Assembly (NCBI GenBank): GCA_021155985.1
Contig: JAJNBA010000004.1
Coordinates: 1 to 61,294 of the forward strand
Length of the DNA: 61,294 nucleotides
Origin: Actinomycetes bacterium
GTDB taxonomy: Bacteria > Actinomycetota > UBA4738 > HRBIN12
Direction: 5' to 3'
A model generated the notes under the pieces. The model worked only from the letters and a program-made list of their open reading frames with translations. It made no database searches and was not told the DNA's origin. A program made the translations under genes and the position numbers. Below, one piece after another: positions 2,731 to 56,909 of the stretch. How positions within the stretch are numbered: position 1 is the stretch's first letter; every line of letters starts with the position of its first letter.

Positions 2731-2794
2731 CTCCGGCCGCCGAAGCGGCCACTCGGGCACGTGAACCTCTGTGCCGCGAAGTCTAGCGCGGTTC

Positions 2795-3178
2795 CTAGAT
2801 CGGGCTGCACCAGCTGGATCGCTCTACCGTCCAGCCCGGATCGAGCGGCGCGAGGATCATCGTGACCTCCCCGAACTCGTCCGTATCGACGACAACTCGC
2901 TCCGTCCCAGGGCTCGGCCCGGGCTGACCTGCCGCGACCGCTGCACCGATCGCCTCATCCGACGCCTGGGCCTCGAGGCGCTCCAGCTCGGCGCCGACGG
3001 CCTCGTCCCGCGTGGCCATCCCGTCGCCACCGGCCTCGTTCATCGACCGAGTGGGAGTGAACCCCTCCGGACATGAGCCTCGGCCGTCCTCGTCGGAGCC
3101 CGAACACGAGAGCGCCCCGATCGTGAAGACCAGCGACACGGACAGCCGCGCGAGCAGCTTGGACGACCTCGGTGCCAT
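2795..3178 (-). CDS. Hypothetical lipoprotein
   Basis: Signal peptide with lipobox-like ALSC, acidic mature part. Confidence 0.6.
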   Translation of the reverse strand: MAPRSSKLLARLSVSLVFTIGALSCSGSDEDGRGSCPEGFTPTRSMNEAGGDGMATRDEAVGAELERLEAQASDEAIGAAVAAGQPGPSPGTERVVVDTDEFGEVTMILAPLDPGWTVERSSWCSPI

Positions 3179-3227
3179 GGCGTGACCGTACCGAGTCTCC
3201 ATCTCGACGTGTGGGATGCTCTCCCGC

Positions 3228-3887
3228 ATGCCCGCCCCGAGCAAGCGCACGCAGGTCCACCGTCACCCCGAGCGGGGTGACTACGACCGCGCCACGATCG
3301 ACCAGATCCTGGACGAGGCGCTCATCTGTCACGTCGCCTTCAACGATGGCGACAGCGCCCCCCGCTGCCTGCCCACGATCCACGCACGCGTGGGCGACAC
3401 GGTCTATCTGCACGGCTCCACGGCCGCCCGCGCCTGGAAGGCCCTCCGCGCCGGCGCCGAGGTCTGCATCGTGGCCACCATCGTCGACGGTCTGGTGATG
3501 GCGCGCAGCGCCTTCAACCACTCCATGAACTACCGGTCCGTCGTGGTCTTCGGGACGGCCCGCGAGGTCACCGAGGAAGAGGAACTGCACACGGCCGCGG
3601 CGGCGATCACCTCGCATGTCGCCCCCGGCCGCGAAGATGAAGCCCGGATGCCCACCGCCGCCGAGTACCGACAGACCCTCCTGCTCGCGGTCCCGATCGA
3701 GGAAGCATCGGCCAAGGTCCGCTCGGGTCCGCCGAAGGACGACGAGGAGGACATGGAGCTGCCGATCTGGGCCGGCGTGCTCCCGCTCCACACGCGACCC
3801 GGCGAGCCGCAACCCGATCCTCAGCTCAGCGGGGACCTCGATGTTCCTCCCTCCGTCTCCGGGTACCACCGACCCGGCGGGCAGTGA
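3228..3887 (+). CDS. Pyridoxamine 5'-phosphate oxidase-like (NimA-type) flavin-binding protein
   Basis: ILDEALICHVAF, YLHGS and ARSAFNHSMNYRSVV motifs. Confidence 0.88.
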   Translation: MPAPSKRTQVHRHPERGDYDRATIDQILDEALICHVAFNDGDSAPRCLPTIHARVGDTVYLHGSTAARAWKALRAGAEVCIVATIVDGLVMARSAFNHSMNYRSVVVFGTAREVTEEEELHTAAAAITSHVAPGREDEARMPTAAEYRQTLLLAVPIEEASAKVRSGPPKDDEEDMELPIWAGVLPLHTRPGEPQPDPQLSGDLDVPPSVSGYHRPGGQ

Positions 3888-5101
3888 ACTCACCCGTCGA
3901 GCGGGGTCCACGGCTCCGCGACAGCTTCCGCGCGATGCCGCGCACCGCGTGGATCCTGTTCGCAGGCACGTTCGTGCTCCGGCTCGGGAGTTTCGTCTTC
4001 CCGTTCCTCGCGCTGTACCTGACGAAGAACGGACTCTCGGTGACCGAGGCCGGTCTGGCGATCACGGGGTACGGGATCGGGGCGATGCTCGCGCAGTTCT
4101 CCGGCGGTCTGCTGACGGACCGGATCGGTCGCCGGAACGCGATCGCGATCTCGATGATCACCTCGGCCGGGCTGGTCCTCCTCCTGCTCCAAGCACGATC
4201 CCTTCCCGCGGTGCTCACGATCGTCGTCGTCTACTCGTTCTTCGCGGAGCTCCACCGCCCCGCTTCGGGTGCCCTGATCGCCGACCTGATCCCTCCGGAG
4301 CACCGTGTCGCCGCGTACGCGTTCAACCGGCTGTTGTTCAACCTCTCTTTCGCGATCGGTCTCGCGATCGGGGGACTCCTCGCGGAGGAGCACTTCCGCG
4401 AGCTGTTCATCGCCGACGCCGCCACCTCGGTGGTCTTCGGCCTGATCTCGCTGGTCGCGCTCCCCCACGGCACGCGCACCACCCGAGCGCAGGATCGGGA
4501 GATCGGCAGCGCTCGGGCCGCGATCCTCGCCGATCGGGGGTTCCTGCTGGTCCTCGCGGCGATCCTCGCGGGGGGGCTCGTCTACGCGCAGGGGTACTCC
4601 ACGTTCCCGCTGTGGGTCCGCGACCTGGGCTTCCCCGAGAGGGTCTACGGGTTCCTGCAGGGTGGGAACGGCTTCCTCGTCGCGATCTTCGAGCTCGGCG
4701 TCACCGCGATCGCGATGCGATACCCGCGGATCCGGATGATCGCCCTGGGCGTACTCCTCACGGGCCTCGGGTTCGGAGCGTTCGGCATCCTCTTGACGGG
4801 GATCGGGATGGCCGGCGCGGTCTTCGTGTGGACCTTCGGCGAGATGTTCGGATCTCCGAGCACCGCGGCGTTCATCGCCGACCGAGCGCCGGCGCATCTC
4901 CGAGGCCGGTATCAGAGCAGCCTGGGGCTCACGTACTCGCTCGCGTTCACGATCGGGCCGATCGGGGGAACGGCGATCTACGAGTGGTGGCCACGAGGCC
5001 TCTGGATCACCTGCGCAGCACTCGGTGTGGCCGGAGCAGCCCTGGCCCTCGCGGGTGAGCGGTATCCCGCACCCGCTCCGGTCGACTCGCCTCCCGGTTG
5101 A
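3884..5101 (+). CDS. MFS transporter
   Basis: About 12 hydrophobic segments, motif A GLLTDRIGRR, APAHLRGRY. Confidence 0.88.
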   Translation: MNSPVERGPRLRDSFRAMPRTAWILFAGTFVLRLGSFVFPFLALYLTKNGLSVTEAGLAITGYGIGAMLAQFSGGLLTDRIGRRNAIAISMITSAGLVLLLLQARSLPAVLTIVVVYSFFAELHRPASGALIADLIPPEHRVAAYAFNRLLFNLSFAIGLAIGGLLAEEHFRELFIADAATSVVFGLISLVALPHGTRTTRAQDREIGSARAAILADRGFLLVLAAILAGGLVYAQGYSTFPLWVRDLGFPERVYGFLQGGNGFLVAIFELGVTAIAMRYPRIRMIALGVLLTGLGFGAFGILLTGIGMAGAVFVWTFGEMFGSPSTAAFIADRAPAHLRGRYQSSLGLTYSLAFTIGPIGGTAIYEWWPRGLWITCAALGVAGAALALAGERYPAPAPVDSPPG

Positions 5102-52647: not shown

Positions 52648-52856
52648 CGGTGAACCCCTCCCGCTCCTATCGTTCGCAGTGAGAGACCGCTGGAGCCCTC
52701 GGGTTCCGGCGGTTTCTCACGTTCCGGCCCGTTCCGGCCCCCCCGGTTCACCTCGGAAGAGATCTCCTGCTCAGCGCCGCTGTCGTCATACTTGTGTCGT
52801 GCCGTCCAGGGAGCGACGATAGCCGGACGTCCGATGCGTCATCGGACGCCCATGCG

Positions 52857-53417
52857 ATGAAGAAGCGGGTCGTCAGAGCCGAGGAATTCGAGATCCTGGA
52901 TGCGGCGGGCCATGTTCGGGTGCGGATCGGTCTGTCGAACGACGATTCACCGTTCTTCTCGATGCTGGATCCTGGTGGGCAGGTTCGCGCACGATTCGGC
53001 CTCTCGTCCGACGGGTCCGCGGGACTCGCGATCGGCGACGACAACGGGAAAGTCCGGGCGACCCTCGGGCTTTCGAGTGACGGTTCCGCCAGCTTGGCGT
53101 TCGGGGACCGGAACGGGAAGATCCGCGCCAAGTTCGGTCTGGCCTCGGACGCCTCGCCGACCCTTGGAGCGCACGTGGAGGGCGAGGAGGTCAGCCACCG
53201 GTACACGCTCGCCGACCAAGGGTCGCCGACCCTGGGCTTGTACGATCGGTTGGGACGGGTACGGATCCGGCTGGGGCTCGCGGCCGAAGGATTCCCGATC
53301 CTCCGGCTGCTCGACGCGGAGGGCGAGCTGCGTGCGCTGGTGGGACTGGCAGACGATGGGAGCCCATTGATCCAGTTCATGAACGAGCGCAAACAGCCGA
53401 CATGGACGATGCGATGA
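52857..53417 (+). CDS. Hypothetical protein made of 23-aa beta-type repeats
   Basis: About 7-8 repeats of L.L.D..G.VRA.LGL..DGSP; ATGA overlap with the next gene. Confidence 0.75.
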   Translation: MKKRVVRAEEFEILDAAGHVRVRIGLSNDDSPFFSMLDPGGQVRARFGLSSDGSAGLAIGDDNGKVRATLGLSSDGSASLAFGDRNGKIRAKFGLASDASPTLGAHVEGEEVSHRYTLADQGSPTLGLYDRLGRVRIRLGLAAEGFPILRLLDAEGELRALVGLADDGSPLIQFMNERKQPTWTMR

Positions 53418-53923
53418 GCGGCTGGTGGACCGCGGCCTTCGTCGGACAATGGGTGCTCCTCGTCGTCCTGTGCGTCGTCGTGGTGGCGCTCGCCCGGCAG
53501 GTGGGGACGCTGCACCTGCGGCTGGGACCGCGTGGCGCGTTGGAGATCGACACGGAGGGTCCGATGCTCGGTGAGCCGCTGCCTCCGGTCGACGCGCGGG
53601 CGGCGGACGGGACGCCGATCGTGATCGGCGGCCCGGGGTCGAGGCGACTGGTGCTGTTCTCCTCCCCCACGTGCATCGTCTGCCGGGAGGTGGCGCCCGC
53701 GCTGCCGGCGGCCGCACGGTCCGCGGACCTCCTCGCCCAGGTGGTGCACGACGAGAAGGTGGAACGCGTGTTCGACGTTCCCGGCACCCCGTATCTCTTG
53801 GTCCTCGACGAGATGGGGGTCGTCCGGGGGAAAGGCACGGTCAACAACCTGGAACAGGTGGAGGGGTTGGTCGATACCGCCCGGCGCAGGATGCGGGAGG
53901 ACGGTGAGCGATGGGCGAGCTGA
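53414..53923 (+). CDS. MauD-like membrane-anchored thioredoxin-fold protein
   Basis: N-terminal TM, ALARQVGTLHLRLGPRGAL, EGP..G, LFSSPTCIVC, VPGTPY, KGTVNNLEQVEGL (MauD signature pattern). Confidence 0.85.
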   Translation: MSGWWTAAFVGQWVLLVVLCVVVVALARQVGTLHLRLGPRGALEIDTEGPMLGEPLPPVDARAADGTPIVIGGPGSRRLVLFSSPTCIVCREVAPALPAAARSADLLAQVVHDEKVERVFDVPGTPYLLVLDEMGVVRGKGTVNNLEQVEGLVDTARRRMREDGERWAS

Positions 53924-54447
53924 CCGGCCTGGAGCGGGCTCAACGAGCGCTCGCGCAACGCACGAGCCGCCGAGGGTTCCTCGGGCGCGTGGGCCGGGGC
54001 GTGGTCGCGCTGGCGGGAGGATCGCTGGTGGCGACGGCCCTCGCGCCGGATCGGGCCGAGGCCCTGCACATCTGCGGGCACACCTTCACGACGGGCTCGT
54101 GTCCTCATCCGTACGCTCCCTCGTCGCGGACCGACCGGTATGGGTTCCCGGTGCACCCGACCTACGGGTACCCGGTGGACGACCGAGGGAAGCTCTACCG
54201 TGATCCAGCGACGCAGGAGCGCTCGAAGACCTGTGAGCAGCGCGTCCCGGACGTGTACTCCTTCGTGAACAACCCGCGGTACGGGGGAGGCTGGACCCGG
54301 TGTTGCTTCGGGCGGCTCAGGCACATCCAGGACTGTTGCTCCCGCTCCTCGATCCGGATCAACGGCGACTACGCGGTGCGTGGCTACTGCCCCTCCGGAC
54401 TCAAGGTGTTCTGCATCACGTACCGAGAGCTCGCGAAGACGTGCTGA
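53911..54447 (+). CDS. Tat-exported cysteine-rich protein resembling amine dehydrogenase light chain (MauA-like)
   Basis: Twin-Arg signal RTSRRGFLG, AEA cleavage site, 10 Cys, GWTRCC...IQDCC...VFC. Confidence 0.72.
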   Translation: MGELTGLERAQRALAQRTSRRGFLGRVGRGVVALAGGSLVATALAPDRAEALHICGHTFTTGSCPHPYAPSSRTDRYGFPVHPTYGYPVDDRGKLYRDPATQERSKTCEQRVPDVYSFVNNPRYGGGWTRCCFGRLRHIQDCCSRSSIRINGDYAVRGYCPSGLKVFCITYRELAKTC

Positions 54448-55637
54448 GCGACGCCGGGCTCGTATCGCTCGCCGCCGCCGCGGCGGTCGCCGGCTGGTCC
54501 GCGTTGTGGGGTCCCTGAGGTCTCTCGATGGTGGAGACCATCAGCCCCGTCGTGTACGGGACGCGGACCCGCTGGGCGGGGGCCCTGGCGCTCCACGCCG
54601 TGGGCGCGACGGCGACCGCGGCAGGCTTCGGTGCCCTGGTCGCCGCGGCCGCCGCGATGCTCGGTGCCCCCTGGGGGAGGGCCGGCGGCGCGATCGTGGC
54701 AGGGGTCGCCCTCCTGTATCTCGTCCGAGAGCTGAGCGGGATCCGCCTGCCGGTGCCGCAGCTGCGCCGACAGGTGCCGGACTGGTGGCGGACGTACTTC
54801 GGCCGACCGCTGGCGGCGCTGCTGTACGGCGCCGGTCTCGGCGTCGGCTTCTTCACCTTCCTCGGCCACGGGACGCTCGTCGTGGTCACGGCGGGCGCGG
54901 CCTCGACCGGCCGACCGCTGTGGGGTGCGCTCGCGGTGGCGCCGTTCGGGCTCGCGCGGGGCCTGGCGCCGCTCGTCGCTGCCGGATCGCGGGAGCCGGA
55001 GGACGGCCGCCGACTCGTCGACCGTCTGAGCTCGACGTCGGACCGACTCCGGAGGGGGCTGAACGGCCTCGCCCTCGCGGGGATCCTGGTAACCGCCGCC
55101 GCCGCGGCGTGGCGTTCGCGCGACGGCTGGGCCGCGGCGGGCGCCGCGGTCCTCGCGGTGACGTTCGCATGGTCCTCGATCGACAAGGTCGTCGGATGGA
55201 GCCGATGGCGACGGGCCCTCAGCGGCCATGCATTCCCACCGAGCGTGACGCGCGTCGCCGCCTGGGTGGCGCCGGGGACCGAAGCCCTCGTCCCGGCCCT
55301 CGCGCTCCTCGGGCGGCCGCGAGCCGCGGCCGTCGTCGCGCTCGCCGCGATCGTGGTCTTCTCCGCCGCCCTCGTGCGCCTCGCCCTTCGCGACGGCCCC
55401 CGCGTCTCCTGCGGCTGCCTCGGCCGAGGGTCGATCGACGTGCGGGTGGCGCTCGGGCGGAACGCGGCGCTCGCCGCCGCCGCCGCCGCCTCGTGGACCT
55501 CGGCGTCCCCGGACCCGCACCTCCAGCTCCCGCGCGCCGACGAGTCGCTGCCGGCCCTGCTCCTGGCGGGTGCAGTCGCTGCCGCCGTGATCACCGGATG
55601 GCGTGCCGCGATCTGGCTGCGAAAGGGGAGCGTGTGA
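54441..55637 (+). CDS. MauF-like/MauE-like fusion membrane protein, candidate selenoprotein (TGA 54516-54518 = Sec26)
   Basis: GTG 54441 overlaps the upstream stop. Reads MLSDAGLVSLAAAAAVAGWSALWGP-TGA-GLSMVETISP, in frame with the 54528-55637 ORF. PQLRRQVP..W, YGAGLGVGFFT (MauF-like); K...E...SCGCLG...RN (MauE-like). Confidence 0.78.
54519..54562 (+). promoter_or_regulatory. Candidate bacterial SECIS hairpin(s)
   Basis: Just 3' of the TGA: GATGGT-GGAG-ACCATC (or the alternative GGTCTC...GAGACC), then CCCGT-CGTGT-ACGGG with a GT in the loop 32 nt after the TGA. Confidence 0.5.
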
Positions 55638-56227
55638 AGGCGCGGCGGCTGCTGTCGACGCTCGCGCCGTTCGGTGCTGCCCTCGTCACCGTGGCGCTGG
55701 TCACCGCGATCGCCGGCGCACACGACACCGACCTGACCGATCCGAACGACACCCGAGGCAGCCTCGACGTGCGACAGGTGCGTCTCTCGCATAAGTCGGG
55801 ACCGCCTGCGTGGACGATCGTGACCTTCGGCGAATGGCGAACGGGAAAGATCTGGGACCGCGGCTACCTGATGGTCTTGCTCGACACCCAGGGGAAAGAG
55901 GACGCCGAGTACTACCTGCTCGTGCGGTCCGCGGGGACCGGCCTCCTGGGGTCGCTCTGGCGGATCCGCAACGTAGGGCCCGACTCCTACCTCGGCTCCG
56001 TGCCCGTCCAGCGGTTCTCGCGGCTGAGCGCGACCGTCCGGGTCGGTCTGTCTCGGCTCACGTTCGGTGCGCACCGGCTCTTCTATCGATGGTGGGTGGA
56101 GACGCTCTTCACGGGCGAGCGCTGCAAGCGGACGTGCCACGACCGTGCTCCCAACCGCGATCCCGTCCTCCAGTGGAGGCCCGGGATGTCGCCGTCGCCA
56201 CCTCCGAGCGAGTCCCCGTCCCCGTGA
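55634..56227 (+). CDS. Hypothetical secreted protein
   Basis: Signal peptide (AIAGA-H), DPNDTRGSLDV, C-terminal CKRTCHDRAP; GTGA coupling to the upstream gene. Confidence 0.72.
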   Translation: MKARRLLSTLAPFGAALVTVALVTAIAGAHDTDLTDPNDTRGSLDVRQVRLSHKSGPPAWTIVTFGEWRTGKIWDRGYLMVLLDTQGKEDAEYYLLVRSAGTGLLGSLWRIRNVGPDSYLGSVPVQRFSRLSATVRVGLSRLTFGAHRLFYRWWVETLFTGERCKRTCHDRAPNRDPVLQWRPGMSPSPPPSESPSP

Positions 56228-56324
56228 TGGCTCTCGACGGGTGAGCCCGTTTCCCTCGACCAGCGAGCGGGTAGTCGCTGCTCATGCGGTAGCTGCTCCG
56301 GCGATCGAAAGAAAGGAGCCCAGG

Positions 56325-56909
56325 ATGCGGACAGGTCGGATCCTCGCTATCGTCATCACGGCCGGTTTCCTCATCTCGATCCTCGTCGCCGGCACGTCTT
56401 CCGGAGTGCCGGCTGGCTGCACGATCATCGGAACCCCCGACAGCGACCACCTGTCTGGTACTGACGGCCGCGACGTGATCTGCGGCCTCGGGGGGAGGGA
56501 CCAGATCCACGGCAAGGGAGGGAACGACGTCCTCATCGGCGGCGATGGCGGTGACACCGTCCGGGGCGGCGCAGGCAAGGACAGGCTGCGAGGAGGAGGC
56601 GGTGTGGACTTCCTCATCGGTGGCGGAGGCCGCGACGTGGCGCGCGGCGGGAGGGGTCAGGACTTCGTTCTCGGGGGACCGAAGGCCGACAGGCTCTTCG
56701 GCGGTCCCGGCAACGATCCCCAGGTCTGGGGCCAGTCCGGCACCGGGGACTTCGTCAGCGGTGGCAACGGGAACGACTTCTGCTTGATCACCCAGGACGG
56801 CGACGGTGACGACGTGGTGGTGGGCGGCCCGGGTCGTGATACCGCCGAAGCCGATCCGGGAGACGCTCGGCGGAGCGTTGAGACGTTCGAGATCTGCCTC
56901 GGCGGATAG
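56325..56909 (+). CDS. Secreted RTX/hemolysin-type calcium-binding repeat protein
   Basis: AAGGAG RBS, signal peptide, CTIIGT...DVICGLGG.D, multiple GGxGxD nonapeptides. Confidence 0.85.
   Translation: MRTGRILAIVITAGFLISILVAGTSSGVPAGCTIIGTPDSDHLSGTDGRDVICGLGGRDQIHGKGGNDVLIGGDGGDTVRGGAGKDRLRGGGGVDFLIGGGGRDVARGGRGQDFVLGGPKADRLFGGPGNDPQVWGQSGTGDFVSGGNGNDFCLITQDGDGDDVVVGGPGRDTAEADPGDARRSVETFEICLGG

Follow-up and report, generated by a model that had tools for sequence, protein, structure and literature searches.

The stretch of DNA analyzed here (the window: 61,294 nucleotides of contig JAJNBA010000004.1, assembly GCA_021155985.1) belongs to an actinomycete genome of 2.67 Mb in 139 contigs, estimated as 91% complete. 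It contains a gene (54441-55637, forward strand) that carries an in-frame TGA at its 26th codon, and we put at roughly 0.9 the probability that this UGA is decoded as selenocysteine (Sec). Sec decoding would produce one polytopic membrane selenoprotein of 398 residues, rather than a 25-codon open reading frame (ORF) followed by one of 369 codons. With nearly the same confidence, the sequence comparisons point to a protein in which this residue lies in an N-terminal membrane domain distantly like CcdA/DsbD, fused to a C-terminal MauE domain. The initial annotation of the window had proposed Sec at residue 26, and several lines of evidence now support that proposal: the TGA recurs in relatives, homologues have Cys in its place, the hairpins behind it are kept in the Sec genes, and the genome encodes the Sec machinery. 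The features discussed below are listed in Table 1.

The gene was found to run as initially described. Its GTG overlaps the stop codon (TGA, 54445-54447) of the preceding gene in the arrangement G-TGC-TGA, and the frame then proceeds through ...AGWSALWGP, the TGA and GLSMVETISP..., with 372 further in-frame codons behind the TGA, where about 370 had been claimed. The GTG is the probable start, as a start-type codon occurs about 25 codons ahead of the TGA in most orthologues. The ORF lister divides the gene in two, as the initial annotation had also observed (54300-54518 and 54528-55637), and the annotated part comprises only 369 amino acids. A word-indexed search with the read-through protein returned 573 relatives; nearly all of the best 120 are 369 residues long, and NCBI labels relatives of this truncated length 'MauE/DoxX family redox-associated membrane protein'. 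All 13 relatives that were fetched open with MVETI[ST]P, that is, with the Met just past the TGA (three codons on). Such a shared beginning means either that this Met is the true start, or that all these genes carry the same TGA and have been truncated by gene callers, the outcome that the initial annotation had predicted for standard callers.

If the first of these were correct, the UGA would be a true stop, closing a 25-codon upstream ORF ahead of a separate and perhaps translationally coupled ORF of 369 codons from the ATG at 54528, and the hairpins that follow the TGA would be regulatory elements or a by-product of the coding sequence. The choice of Met30 by gene callers and the mere presence of an ATG three codons past the TGA suit such an arrangement. 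The 25 upstream codons, however, align in frame and without gaps with the first transmembrane helix of the Cys-containing relatives, in which the helix runs straight through the column; Met30 is the conserved M of the C/U-G-x-S-M motif in those relatives too, and is thus no evidence of a start; and a protein begun at Met30 would lose the first helix together with the only conserved redox residue of the domain. A true stop is accordingly the least probable of all the readings considered here.

A sequencing or assembly error at the TGA was also considered and was rejected. Independent support from other DNA was found in contigs of two other soil DNA runs, made in a different study from the possible source of the window, which span the TGA with 0 and 1 differences, respectively (X3 record 17, covering 54300-54794, and X4 record 26, covering 54363-55631); the TGA is therefore not an assembly error. 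Over the gene, contigs from two RNA libraries (X15 and X16) are alike at 88-99%; as they derive from relatives, they are no evidence that the gene in the window is transcribed. In the metatranscriptome X15, the summed contig depth rises to 120-144 at 54488-54581, against roughly 10-50 elsewhere, which fits many relatives sharing the conserved stretch of Sec motif and hairpins and is not a measure of expression.

The distribution of the TGA was assessed in genomes of the same order and then in the phylum at large. A six-frame search of 201 genomes of the order gave a match in 141. Among the matches listed, an in-frame TGA is present in every one that covers query residue 26, whilst the stop-free ones all begin at residue 37 or later, being contig ends or pieces of frameshifted genes. 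(The tallies for the order include the unpublished genomes G199, G147, G040, G189, G053, G032, G074, G087, G173 and G200.) Some matches in this search contain two or three TGA codons; the extra ones proved to be true stops of stand-alone paralogues that the alignment had overrun. At the level of orthologous loci, 65 were collected (L021-L085, L021 being the window itself), and the TGA occupies the same column in 64 of them; the remaining one, L034, is cut by a contig end. The motif over these loci is A-G-[WLIVF]-S-x-L-x-[GS]-P-TGA-G-[LMIF]-S-M-[VA]-x-T-I-x-P-V-V. The Gly and Pro codons just ahead of the TGA vary at their third positions (GGT/GGG/GGC/GGA and CCC/CCT/CCG/CCA), which indicates selection on the protein upstream of the supposed stop. 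Among the 31 full-length orthologues, G18, P25, U26, G27, S29 and M30 are invariant.

The same codon is found in genes that lack the MauE half. Five stand-alone paralogues of 225-277 codons (L086-L090, from genomes G081, G117, G108 and G030) all have TGA at the column, within W-S-P-TGA-G-x-S-M. Further stand-alone genes without MauE (L134-L160; 200-280 codons for the group that includes L086-L090) likewise show TGA in W-S-P-U-G-x-S-M. Stand-alone TGA genes occur across many families of the phylum, and databases call them from the Met past the TGA. The 33 related loci in named records come from metagenome-assembled genomes of uncultured Actinomycetota or Actinomycetes, with the exception of one labelled Gemmatimonadales and one labelled only 'bacterium'.

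The initial annotation had suggested a search for homologues with Cys at this column and for other genomes with TGA there, and both were found in the phylum. In a sample of 401 genomes, 86 contained a match at E up to 1e-10 (the tallies include the unpublished genomes G422, G362, G217, G410, G312, G201, G561, G449 and G245, and with them loci L104, L107, L108, L115 and L117). The column is spanned by 86 of the 94 listed matches; among these 86, one TGA is present in 73 and none in 13. When the unpublished genomes are left out, the TGA is present in 63 of 76 spanning matches. All 13 stop-free matches were read and have Cys at the column, and in each of the 47 TGA matches that were read (out of 73) the TGA lies within the motif. 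The coexistence of Sec and Cys forms is the classical signature of a selenoprotein family. In this family the Sec form is the commoner of the two (73 versus 13 in the phylum sample), the reverse of what is known of most selenoprotein families.

The wider family was examined with a profile of 25 stand-alone-type domains (A2), searched against 1.84 billion cluster representatives. (Unpublished genomes were left out of alignments A2, A3 and A4 and of the comparison of hairpins between Sec and Cys genes given below.) With E up to 0.001 the profile matched 4814 representatives, a number that falls to 2573 at 1e-10 and to 398 at 1e-30. Among the best 150 matches, 103 start exactly at profile position 27, the Met past the Sec column. 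Another 35 are full length, their alignments beginning at profile position 2-7, and the last 12 are other fragments. For 29 of the 35 full-length proteins the sequence was fetched, and 28 have Cys at the Sec column, mostly within T-W-S-P-C-G-L-S-M-L-S-S-I-T-P. The motif that the initial annotation gave for membrane proteins of this kind, S/T-W-S-P-C-G-x-S-M, is what the Cys forms display. The source names of the clusters are uninformative ('hypothetical protein', 'MFS family permease'), and a tblastn search of plasmids with one Cys form gave no match.

The genome encodes all four components of Sec incorporation that the initial annotation had listed for inspection. The selA (486 bits) and selB (304 bits) genes lie side by side on contig C26, selD (380 bits) on C18 and the gene for tRNA-Sec (70 bits) on C8, each scoring above its curated cut-off; ARAGORN also reports the latter as tRNA-SeC with the anticodon tca. 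Among related genomes, selA was detected in 9 of 10 that carry the TGA form, compared with 2 of 10 that carry the Cys form only, an association rather than a test, given genomes that are related and few. In one genome of the phylum (G354) a stand-alone TGA gene is located about 2 kb from selA, the pair occupying C1:1777798-1779060 and C1:1781046-1781687. An additional match to the selB model in the genome of the window (G000:C127:19903-21054; 193 bits, below the cut-off) contains one in-frame TAG and is probably two adjacent translation-factor genes.

These data also bear on the suggestion that the UGA is read through as Trp, Cys or Gly, by a near-cognate or suppressor tRNA or through a local change of the code, and not as Sec. 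A protein in the databases, P0147, shows Trp in the Sec column (GPWGLSM) and is joined to an upstream Cys-rich ORF; it could be cited in favor of this suggestion, as could the comparative basis of the Sec prediction. P0147 looks miscalled or differently translated, and is probably a miscalled record, a TGA-as-Trp translation or the product of a messy contig. TGA, moreover, is the ordinary stop codon of this gene and of its upstream neighbour, which argues against an altered genetic code, and the Sec machinery is complete. The TGA form goes together with selA, the aligned residue in relatives is Cys, and the codon is followed by a hairpin specific to the TGA form. Insertion of another residue is thus very improbable, and the two competing interpretations of the codon, another amino acid or a true stop, leave little probability between them. 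Decoding as Sec, the preferred reading, has a further consequence that can be examined in the DNA, namely an RNA structure immediately 3' of the UGA.

Both hairpins that the initial annotation had drawn behind the TGA exist as written, the loop of the second beginning 32 nt downstream. In most orthologues the second takes the form CCCCGUG-GUC-CACGGGG. Their conservation was assessed in a gap-free alignment (A1) of 68 distinct sequences, 63 from orthologues and 5 from paralogues, in which the row L044 stems from the unpublished genome G199. Over hairpin 1, 97.3% of the cells are paired, with GC>CG compensatory changes at 2 pairs; over hairpin 2, 91.2% are paired, with compensatory changes at 4 pairs. 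For both hairpins together the proportion is 94.0% of 884 cells; sliding the 3' partners by 1-3 columns lowers it to 35-61%. Of the 13 pairs, 6 have changed on both sides. For the covariation score and the percentage paired, none of 500 shuffled alignments came up to the observed value; for the counts of covarying pairs and of pair types, 1 of 500 did. As the sequences are related, these numbers are not probabilities. RNAalifold independently arrives at the same pair of hairpins. At the protein level the compensatory changes are not silent: Met-Val-x-Thr-Ile (AUG GUN ... ACC AUC) becomes Met-Leu-x-Ser-Ile (AUG CUN ... AGC AUC) in the stand-alone forms, with the pairing kept.

The pairing of hairpin 1 distinguishes Sec from Cys genes. 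In 40 Sec genes a mean of 5.7 of its 6 pairs is kept (29 genes with six, 10 with five and 1 with four), versus 3.1 of 6 in 11 Cys genes (range 1-5). The seventh codon past the Sec is ACC (19 genes) or AGC (21 genes) in all 40 Sec genes, complementary to the fifth codon past the Sec, and in the Cys genes the corresponding codon is ACG, CAG, ACC, AGC or TCG. Hairpin 2 is less uniform, with 5.45 of 7 pairs in the Sec genes versus 3.5 of 7 in the Cys genes, and one stand-alone subgroup has a register-shifted hairpin in its place. The two tandem hairpins are candidates for the selenocysteine insertion sequence (SECIS), which may consist of one or both of them. The initial placement of a SECIS right behind the UGA is supported to the extent that conserved, covarying hairpins are found there, but neither hairpin falls within every numeric limit of the bacterial SECIS (bSECIS) model. 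As given in a 2026 review (PMC13188914), these limits are a loop of 3-9 nt, a stem of 4-16 bp, a G in the first two loop positions, a spacing of 16-37 nt and a minimum free energy of at most -7.5 kcal/mol. Hairpin 2 lies within all of them except energy, and hairpin 1 within all except energy and, on one way of counting, spacing.

In the protein, the MauE domain and the Cys-Gly-Cys motif that the initial annotation had placed in the C-terminal half are both present, the domain match being well above its cut-off. The N-terminal half is the more distant relative of known families, and its proposed CcdA/DsbD character stands in part: links to DsbD_2 and CcdA are weak and consistent, but the canonical pair of Cys residues is not there, the second Cys being absent and Sec being the lone conserved redox residue of the domain. 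The DsbD_2 model matches two stand-alone paralogues above its cut-off of 24.9 bits (L086, 33.9 bits; L088, 25.2 bits). At E up to 0.01, DsbD_2 matches 3 and DsbD_TM 2 of the 25 A2 members, and DsbD_2 matches 3 of 10 Cys forms. In the protein Atlas, one Cys form sits among clusters of Actinomycetota annotated 'hypothetical protein' that have a faint link to DsbD_2. The genome also has a CcdA of its own on contig C11 (PF02683, 70.5 bits), and when the A2 profile is aligned with it by hhalign (E 0.0012) the Sec column falls on the first ...S-P-C... of CcdA. On this comparison, the N-terminal domain may work like the first half-site of CcdA/DsbD. Across the 31 full-length orthologues the sole invariant Cys or Sec positions are U26, C324 and C326, and the pair P25-U26 is likewise invariant. 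In an AlphaFold2 (AF2) model of the whole protein (predicted local distance difference test, pLDDT, 89; predicted template modelling score, pTM, 0.85), helices 4-23 and 25-33 are separated by a break at the Pro-Sec. Neither the read-through protein nor the five paralogues match any model of NCBIfam (release 20), and a search of PDB sequences with the A2 profile gave chance matches only.

A number of observations weigh against the decoding of the UGA as Sec or against the assignments that accompany it. Genome G421, which has the TGA-form gene and is 98% complete in 120 contigs, gave no match for selA; this could be an assembly gap, or the gene could have been left stranded after loss of the Sec machinery. 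The 60 nt from the UGA onward (54516-54575) fold no better than shuffled sequences (z = -0.38, with 65 of 200 shuffles folding at least as well), a result that also suits a true stop; the support for the hairpins is hence comparative and not thermodynamic. Each hairpin alone has an energy of -7.0 kcal/mol, 0.5 short of the bSECIS limit (-15.5 for both together), the loop of hairpin 1 begins 14 nt past the codon (17 from its U), at or under the lower end of the range, and the G is missing from the first two loop positions of hairpin 1 in 3 of the 40 Sec genes (present in 37). On the protein side, the N-terminal half encoded in the window has no Pfam match even at E up to 10, the hhalign probability of the CcdA link is a weak 19.5%, and the second ...W-T-P-C... 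of CcdA, carrying the Cys that with the first defines CcdA/DsbD, aligns with Cys-free columns of A2. The domain is therefore not filed as a member of CcdA/DsbD, since a model match and the second Cys are the defining features. A Foldseek search of the PDB with the AF2 model of the whole protein found no similar structure (best E 0.26, template modelling score below 0.2). Finally, the selenoprotein and its relay function alike are predictions drawn from comparison.

The gene is the fourth in a block of five that overlap or abut, and whose order is conserved across genera (Table 1). A C-terminus like that of the repeat protein at the head of the block (...QPTWTMR) occurs near a paralogue in locus L202, and just downstream of the block an ORF at 56067-56909 contains RTX calcium-binding nonapeptide repeats (PF00353, E 2.8e-23).

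Table 1. Coordinates of the candidate selenoprotein gene, its parts and its neighbours in the window.
Feature	Coordinates	Strand	Remarks
Repeat protein, first of conserved block	52794..53417	+	About five repeats G-x-V-R-A-x-L-G-L-S-x-D-G-S-x-x-L-A-x-G-D; no family
MauD-like membrane-anchored thioredoxin-fold protein, CIVC	53402..53923	+	TIGR02661 E 2e-20, below curated cut-off; weak Pfam thioredoxin matches
Twin-arginine translocation (Tat)-signal secreted protein, 10 invariant Cys, one invariant Trp	53911..54447	+	No family; predicted client
Candidate selenoprotein gene	54441..55637	+	398 codons plus stop; GTG start, TGA stop 55635-55637
N-terminal membrane domain, distantly CcdA/DsbD_2-like (putative)	54441..55124	+	Residues 1 to about 228; Sec26 at helix break; no further conserved Cys
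In-frame UGA, codon 26, probably read as Sec	54516..54518	+	Column conservation; Cys in full-length relatives
Hairpin 1, GAUGGU-GGAG-ACCAUC	54527..54542	+	Candidate SECIS or part; 6 bp, 4-nt loop, begins 8 nt past UGA
Hairpin 2, CCCGU-CGUGU-ACGGG	54545..54561	+	Candidate SECIS or part; 5 bp; loop begins 32 nt past UGA
MauE domain	55137..55496	+	Residues 233-352; PF07291, E 2e-18, 67.4 bits, cut-off 27
Cys-Gly-Cys (C324, C326) of MauE domain	55410..55418	+	Invariant in 31/31 full-length orthologues; beta hairpin 321-333 in AF2 model
Conserved downstream gene	55634..56227	+	N-terminal hydrophobic segment; Pro/Ser-rich tail in relatives; no family

The gene for the 10-Cys Tat protein lies directly upstream of the Sec gene, an arrangement that recurs in other families within the phylum. 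Besides its Cys residues, the invariant features of this protein include W128 and an H-x-C-G-H...C-P-H-P segment. In its leader the protein is similar to the light chain of methylamine dehydrogenase (TIGR02659, E 0.0016, residues 7-41), and a profile of the protein (A4) searched against the PDB recovered only the light-chain leader of 3c75_L (E 0.29, profile positions 4-39). With the 10-Cys protein as query, phmmer found 0 matches among PDB sequences, and Foldseek with its AF2 model (pLDDT 72) returned nothing, including no methylamine dehydrogenase light chain. As the mature part matches nothing in sequence or fold, the protein is not called MauA.

The partners remain associated when the domains are encoded separately. 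In all six loci examined, the stand-alone Sec or Cys forms have a MauE gene nearby (Pfam E 2e-4 to 2e-15, five over the cut-off), and the Cys-Gly-Cys motif is present in all six of these separate MauE genes. In one locus, MauE is fused to a CxxC thioredoxin domain. In another (L199, G347:C5, oriented 2744-4072), MauE with its Cys-Gly-Cys shares one open frame of 443 codons with a CxxC thioredoxin domain, the 10-Cys protein and, inside the frame, a Tat-like RR motif. This frame is either a true fusion of three genes or a row of neighbours that lack intervening stops, and a DsbD_2-like gene of the Cys form comes next. In the lineage of the window, MauE is instead fused to the DsbD_2-like domain. 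The shifting fusions argue that the four parts work together.

On the basis of these associations we propose the following scheme. The RNA structure right behind the UGA would direct recoding through one or both hairpins, and the SelB and tRNA-Sec of the genome would read the codon. The N-terminal half would be a degenerate CcdA/DsbD-type domain whose sole retained site is the first intramembrane Pro-Cys, present as Pro-Sec. From its position at the break in the first transmembrane helix, Sec26 would engage in selenylsulfide exchange with the MauE Cys-Gly-Cys, either within the membrane or across it, and this selenylsulfide/disulfide relay would pass redox equivalents to or from the co-encoded MauD-like thioredoxin. 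The latter would in turn form or shuffle disulfides, or a Cys-derived cross-link or cofactor, of the 10-Cys Tat protein. The chances that the protein serves as such a thiol/selenol redox relay appear about even.

A different function is conceivable for the same selenoprotein: it may be a metal or metalloid transporter or chaperone, in which Sec or Cys, the Met four residues on and a nearby His bind a soft metal, such as Cu(I), or a species of As or Se, perhaps loading the His- and Cys-rich Tat protein. A domain with a single conserved redox residue accords with this idea and fits poorly with the two-Cys mechanism of CcdA. M30 is invariant and H52 nearly so, and the invariant H-x-C-G-H...C-P-H-P segment of the client would suit metal handling. 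The model of the ArsG efflux permease weakly matches one paralogue (E 5.2e-5), and selenoproteins that are transporters or related to DsbD are on record, among them SO_0444 (Cu/Zn efflux), a MerT-like protein and YeeE/YedE (PMC13188914). The ArsG match, however, falls far short of the cut-off, neither a metal-binding domain nor a P-type ATPase was seen among the genes of the block, and the conserved partners, a MauD-like CxxC thioredoxin fold and the Cys-Gly-Cys of MauE, are the make-up of a thiol-disulfide system. We consider metal handling the less probable function, and an unlikely one, and the proposed redox relay is compared below with known systems.

CcdA typically works with a membrane-anchored thioredoxin-fold partner. 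Like CcdA/DsbD (PF02683, DsbD_TM; PF13386, DsbD_2), the protein described here has a polytopic membrane domain, its Sec column aligns with the first intramembrane Pro-Cys of the genome's CcdA, some relatives of the domain exceed the DsbD_2 cut-off, and the gene is encoded with a membrane-anchored thioredoxin-fold partner. Unlike CcdA/DsbD, it would have Sec in place of Cys, no second conserved Cys and a fused MauE, and the domain in the window has no Pfam match. Without the second conserved Cys, an intramolecular two-Cys shuttle cannot operate. In methylamine utilization (mau) clusters, methylamine dehydrogenase depends on MauE and MauD for its disulfide-rich small subunit, and MauF is a membrane protein. 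The block in the window resembles such clusters in the MauE of the C-terminal half, the MauD match of the neighbour and the leader of the presumed client; it differs in that the mature 10-Cys protein has no detectable similarity to the light chain in sequence or fold and that, among the genes of the conserved block, none for a dehydrogenase large subunit was seen.

Other membrane selenoproteins of bacteria have been predicted. According to PMC13188914, they include TsoB, a rhodanese/DsbD fusion-like protein (NF045694) with the motif UxxxxU, as well as the SO_0444 Cu/Zn efflux transporter (UxC), the MerT-like protein and YeeE/YedE. Like the present protein, all are predicted bacterial selenoproteins with DsbD-like or transporter membrane domains; they differ in their architectures and in their motifs (UxxxxU, UxC, C/SxxU and GUxSG, compared with P-U-G-x-S-M and a single Sec here), and none of the models for TsoB, SO_0444, the MerT-like protein or YeeE/YedE was returned by the NCBIfam scan of the protein and its five paralogues. 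That review covers 119 prokaryotic selenoprotein families and subfamilies; its Table 1 has no entry for MauE, DsbD_2 or P-U-G-x-S-M, and those that come closest are the four just named. Full-text searches yielded no paper on a MauE or DsbD_2 selenoprotein; an earlier mention in the supplementary list of a large screen is possible.

By the usual criteria, the gene would encode a selenoprotein, one whose setting is unusual: a single membrane-embedded Sec, a half-degenerate CcdA fold, MauE as an obligate partner, and Sec forms that outnumber the Cys forms. A bolder interpretation, which we advance tentatively and regard as rather doubtful, is that the family is an uncatalogued one, perhaps one of the most common selenoprotein families of soil Actinomycetota, and that it normally has Sec rather than Cys. 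A lone intramembrane Sec in a CcdA fold minus its second Cys would then act in an in-trans selenylsulfide relay with the Cys-Gly-Cys of MauE. Its client would be a new Tat-exported 10-Cys protein with a leader of the methylamine dehydrogenase type, possibly the carrier of a cofactor derived from Cys or Trp.

Public annotation truncates this family at the Met past the UGA, and with it loses the first helix and the predicted catalytic residue. If the Sec reading is correct, a catalogue made up mostly of soluble thioredoxin-fold proteins gains a Sec site embedded in the membrane. To our knowledge, the role of MauE has been unclear since mau clusters were first described, and a CcdA-like domain with one redox residue, paired or fused with a MauE that carries Cys-Gly-Cys and accompanied by a MauD-like thioredoxin, offers a testable model of that role. 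Selenium availability may condition the maturation of a secreted Cys-rich protein in abundant uncultured Actinomycetota of soil. Should the more tentative interpretation as a novel family hold, maturation machinery of the MauE/MauD/MauF type would be far more widespread than methylamine metabolism.

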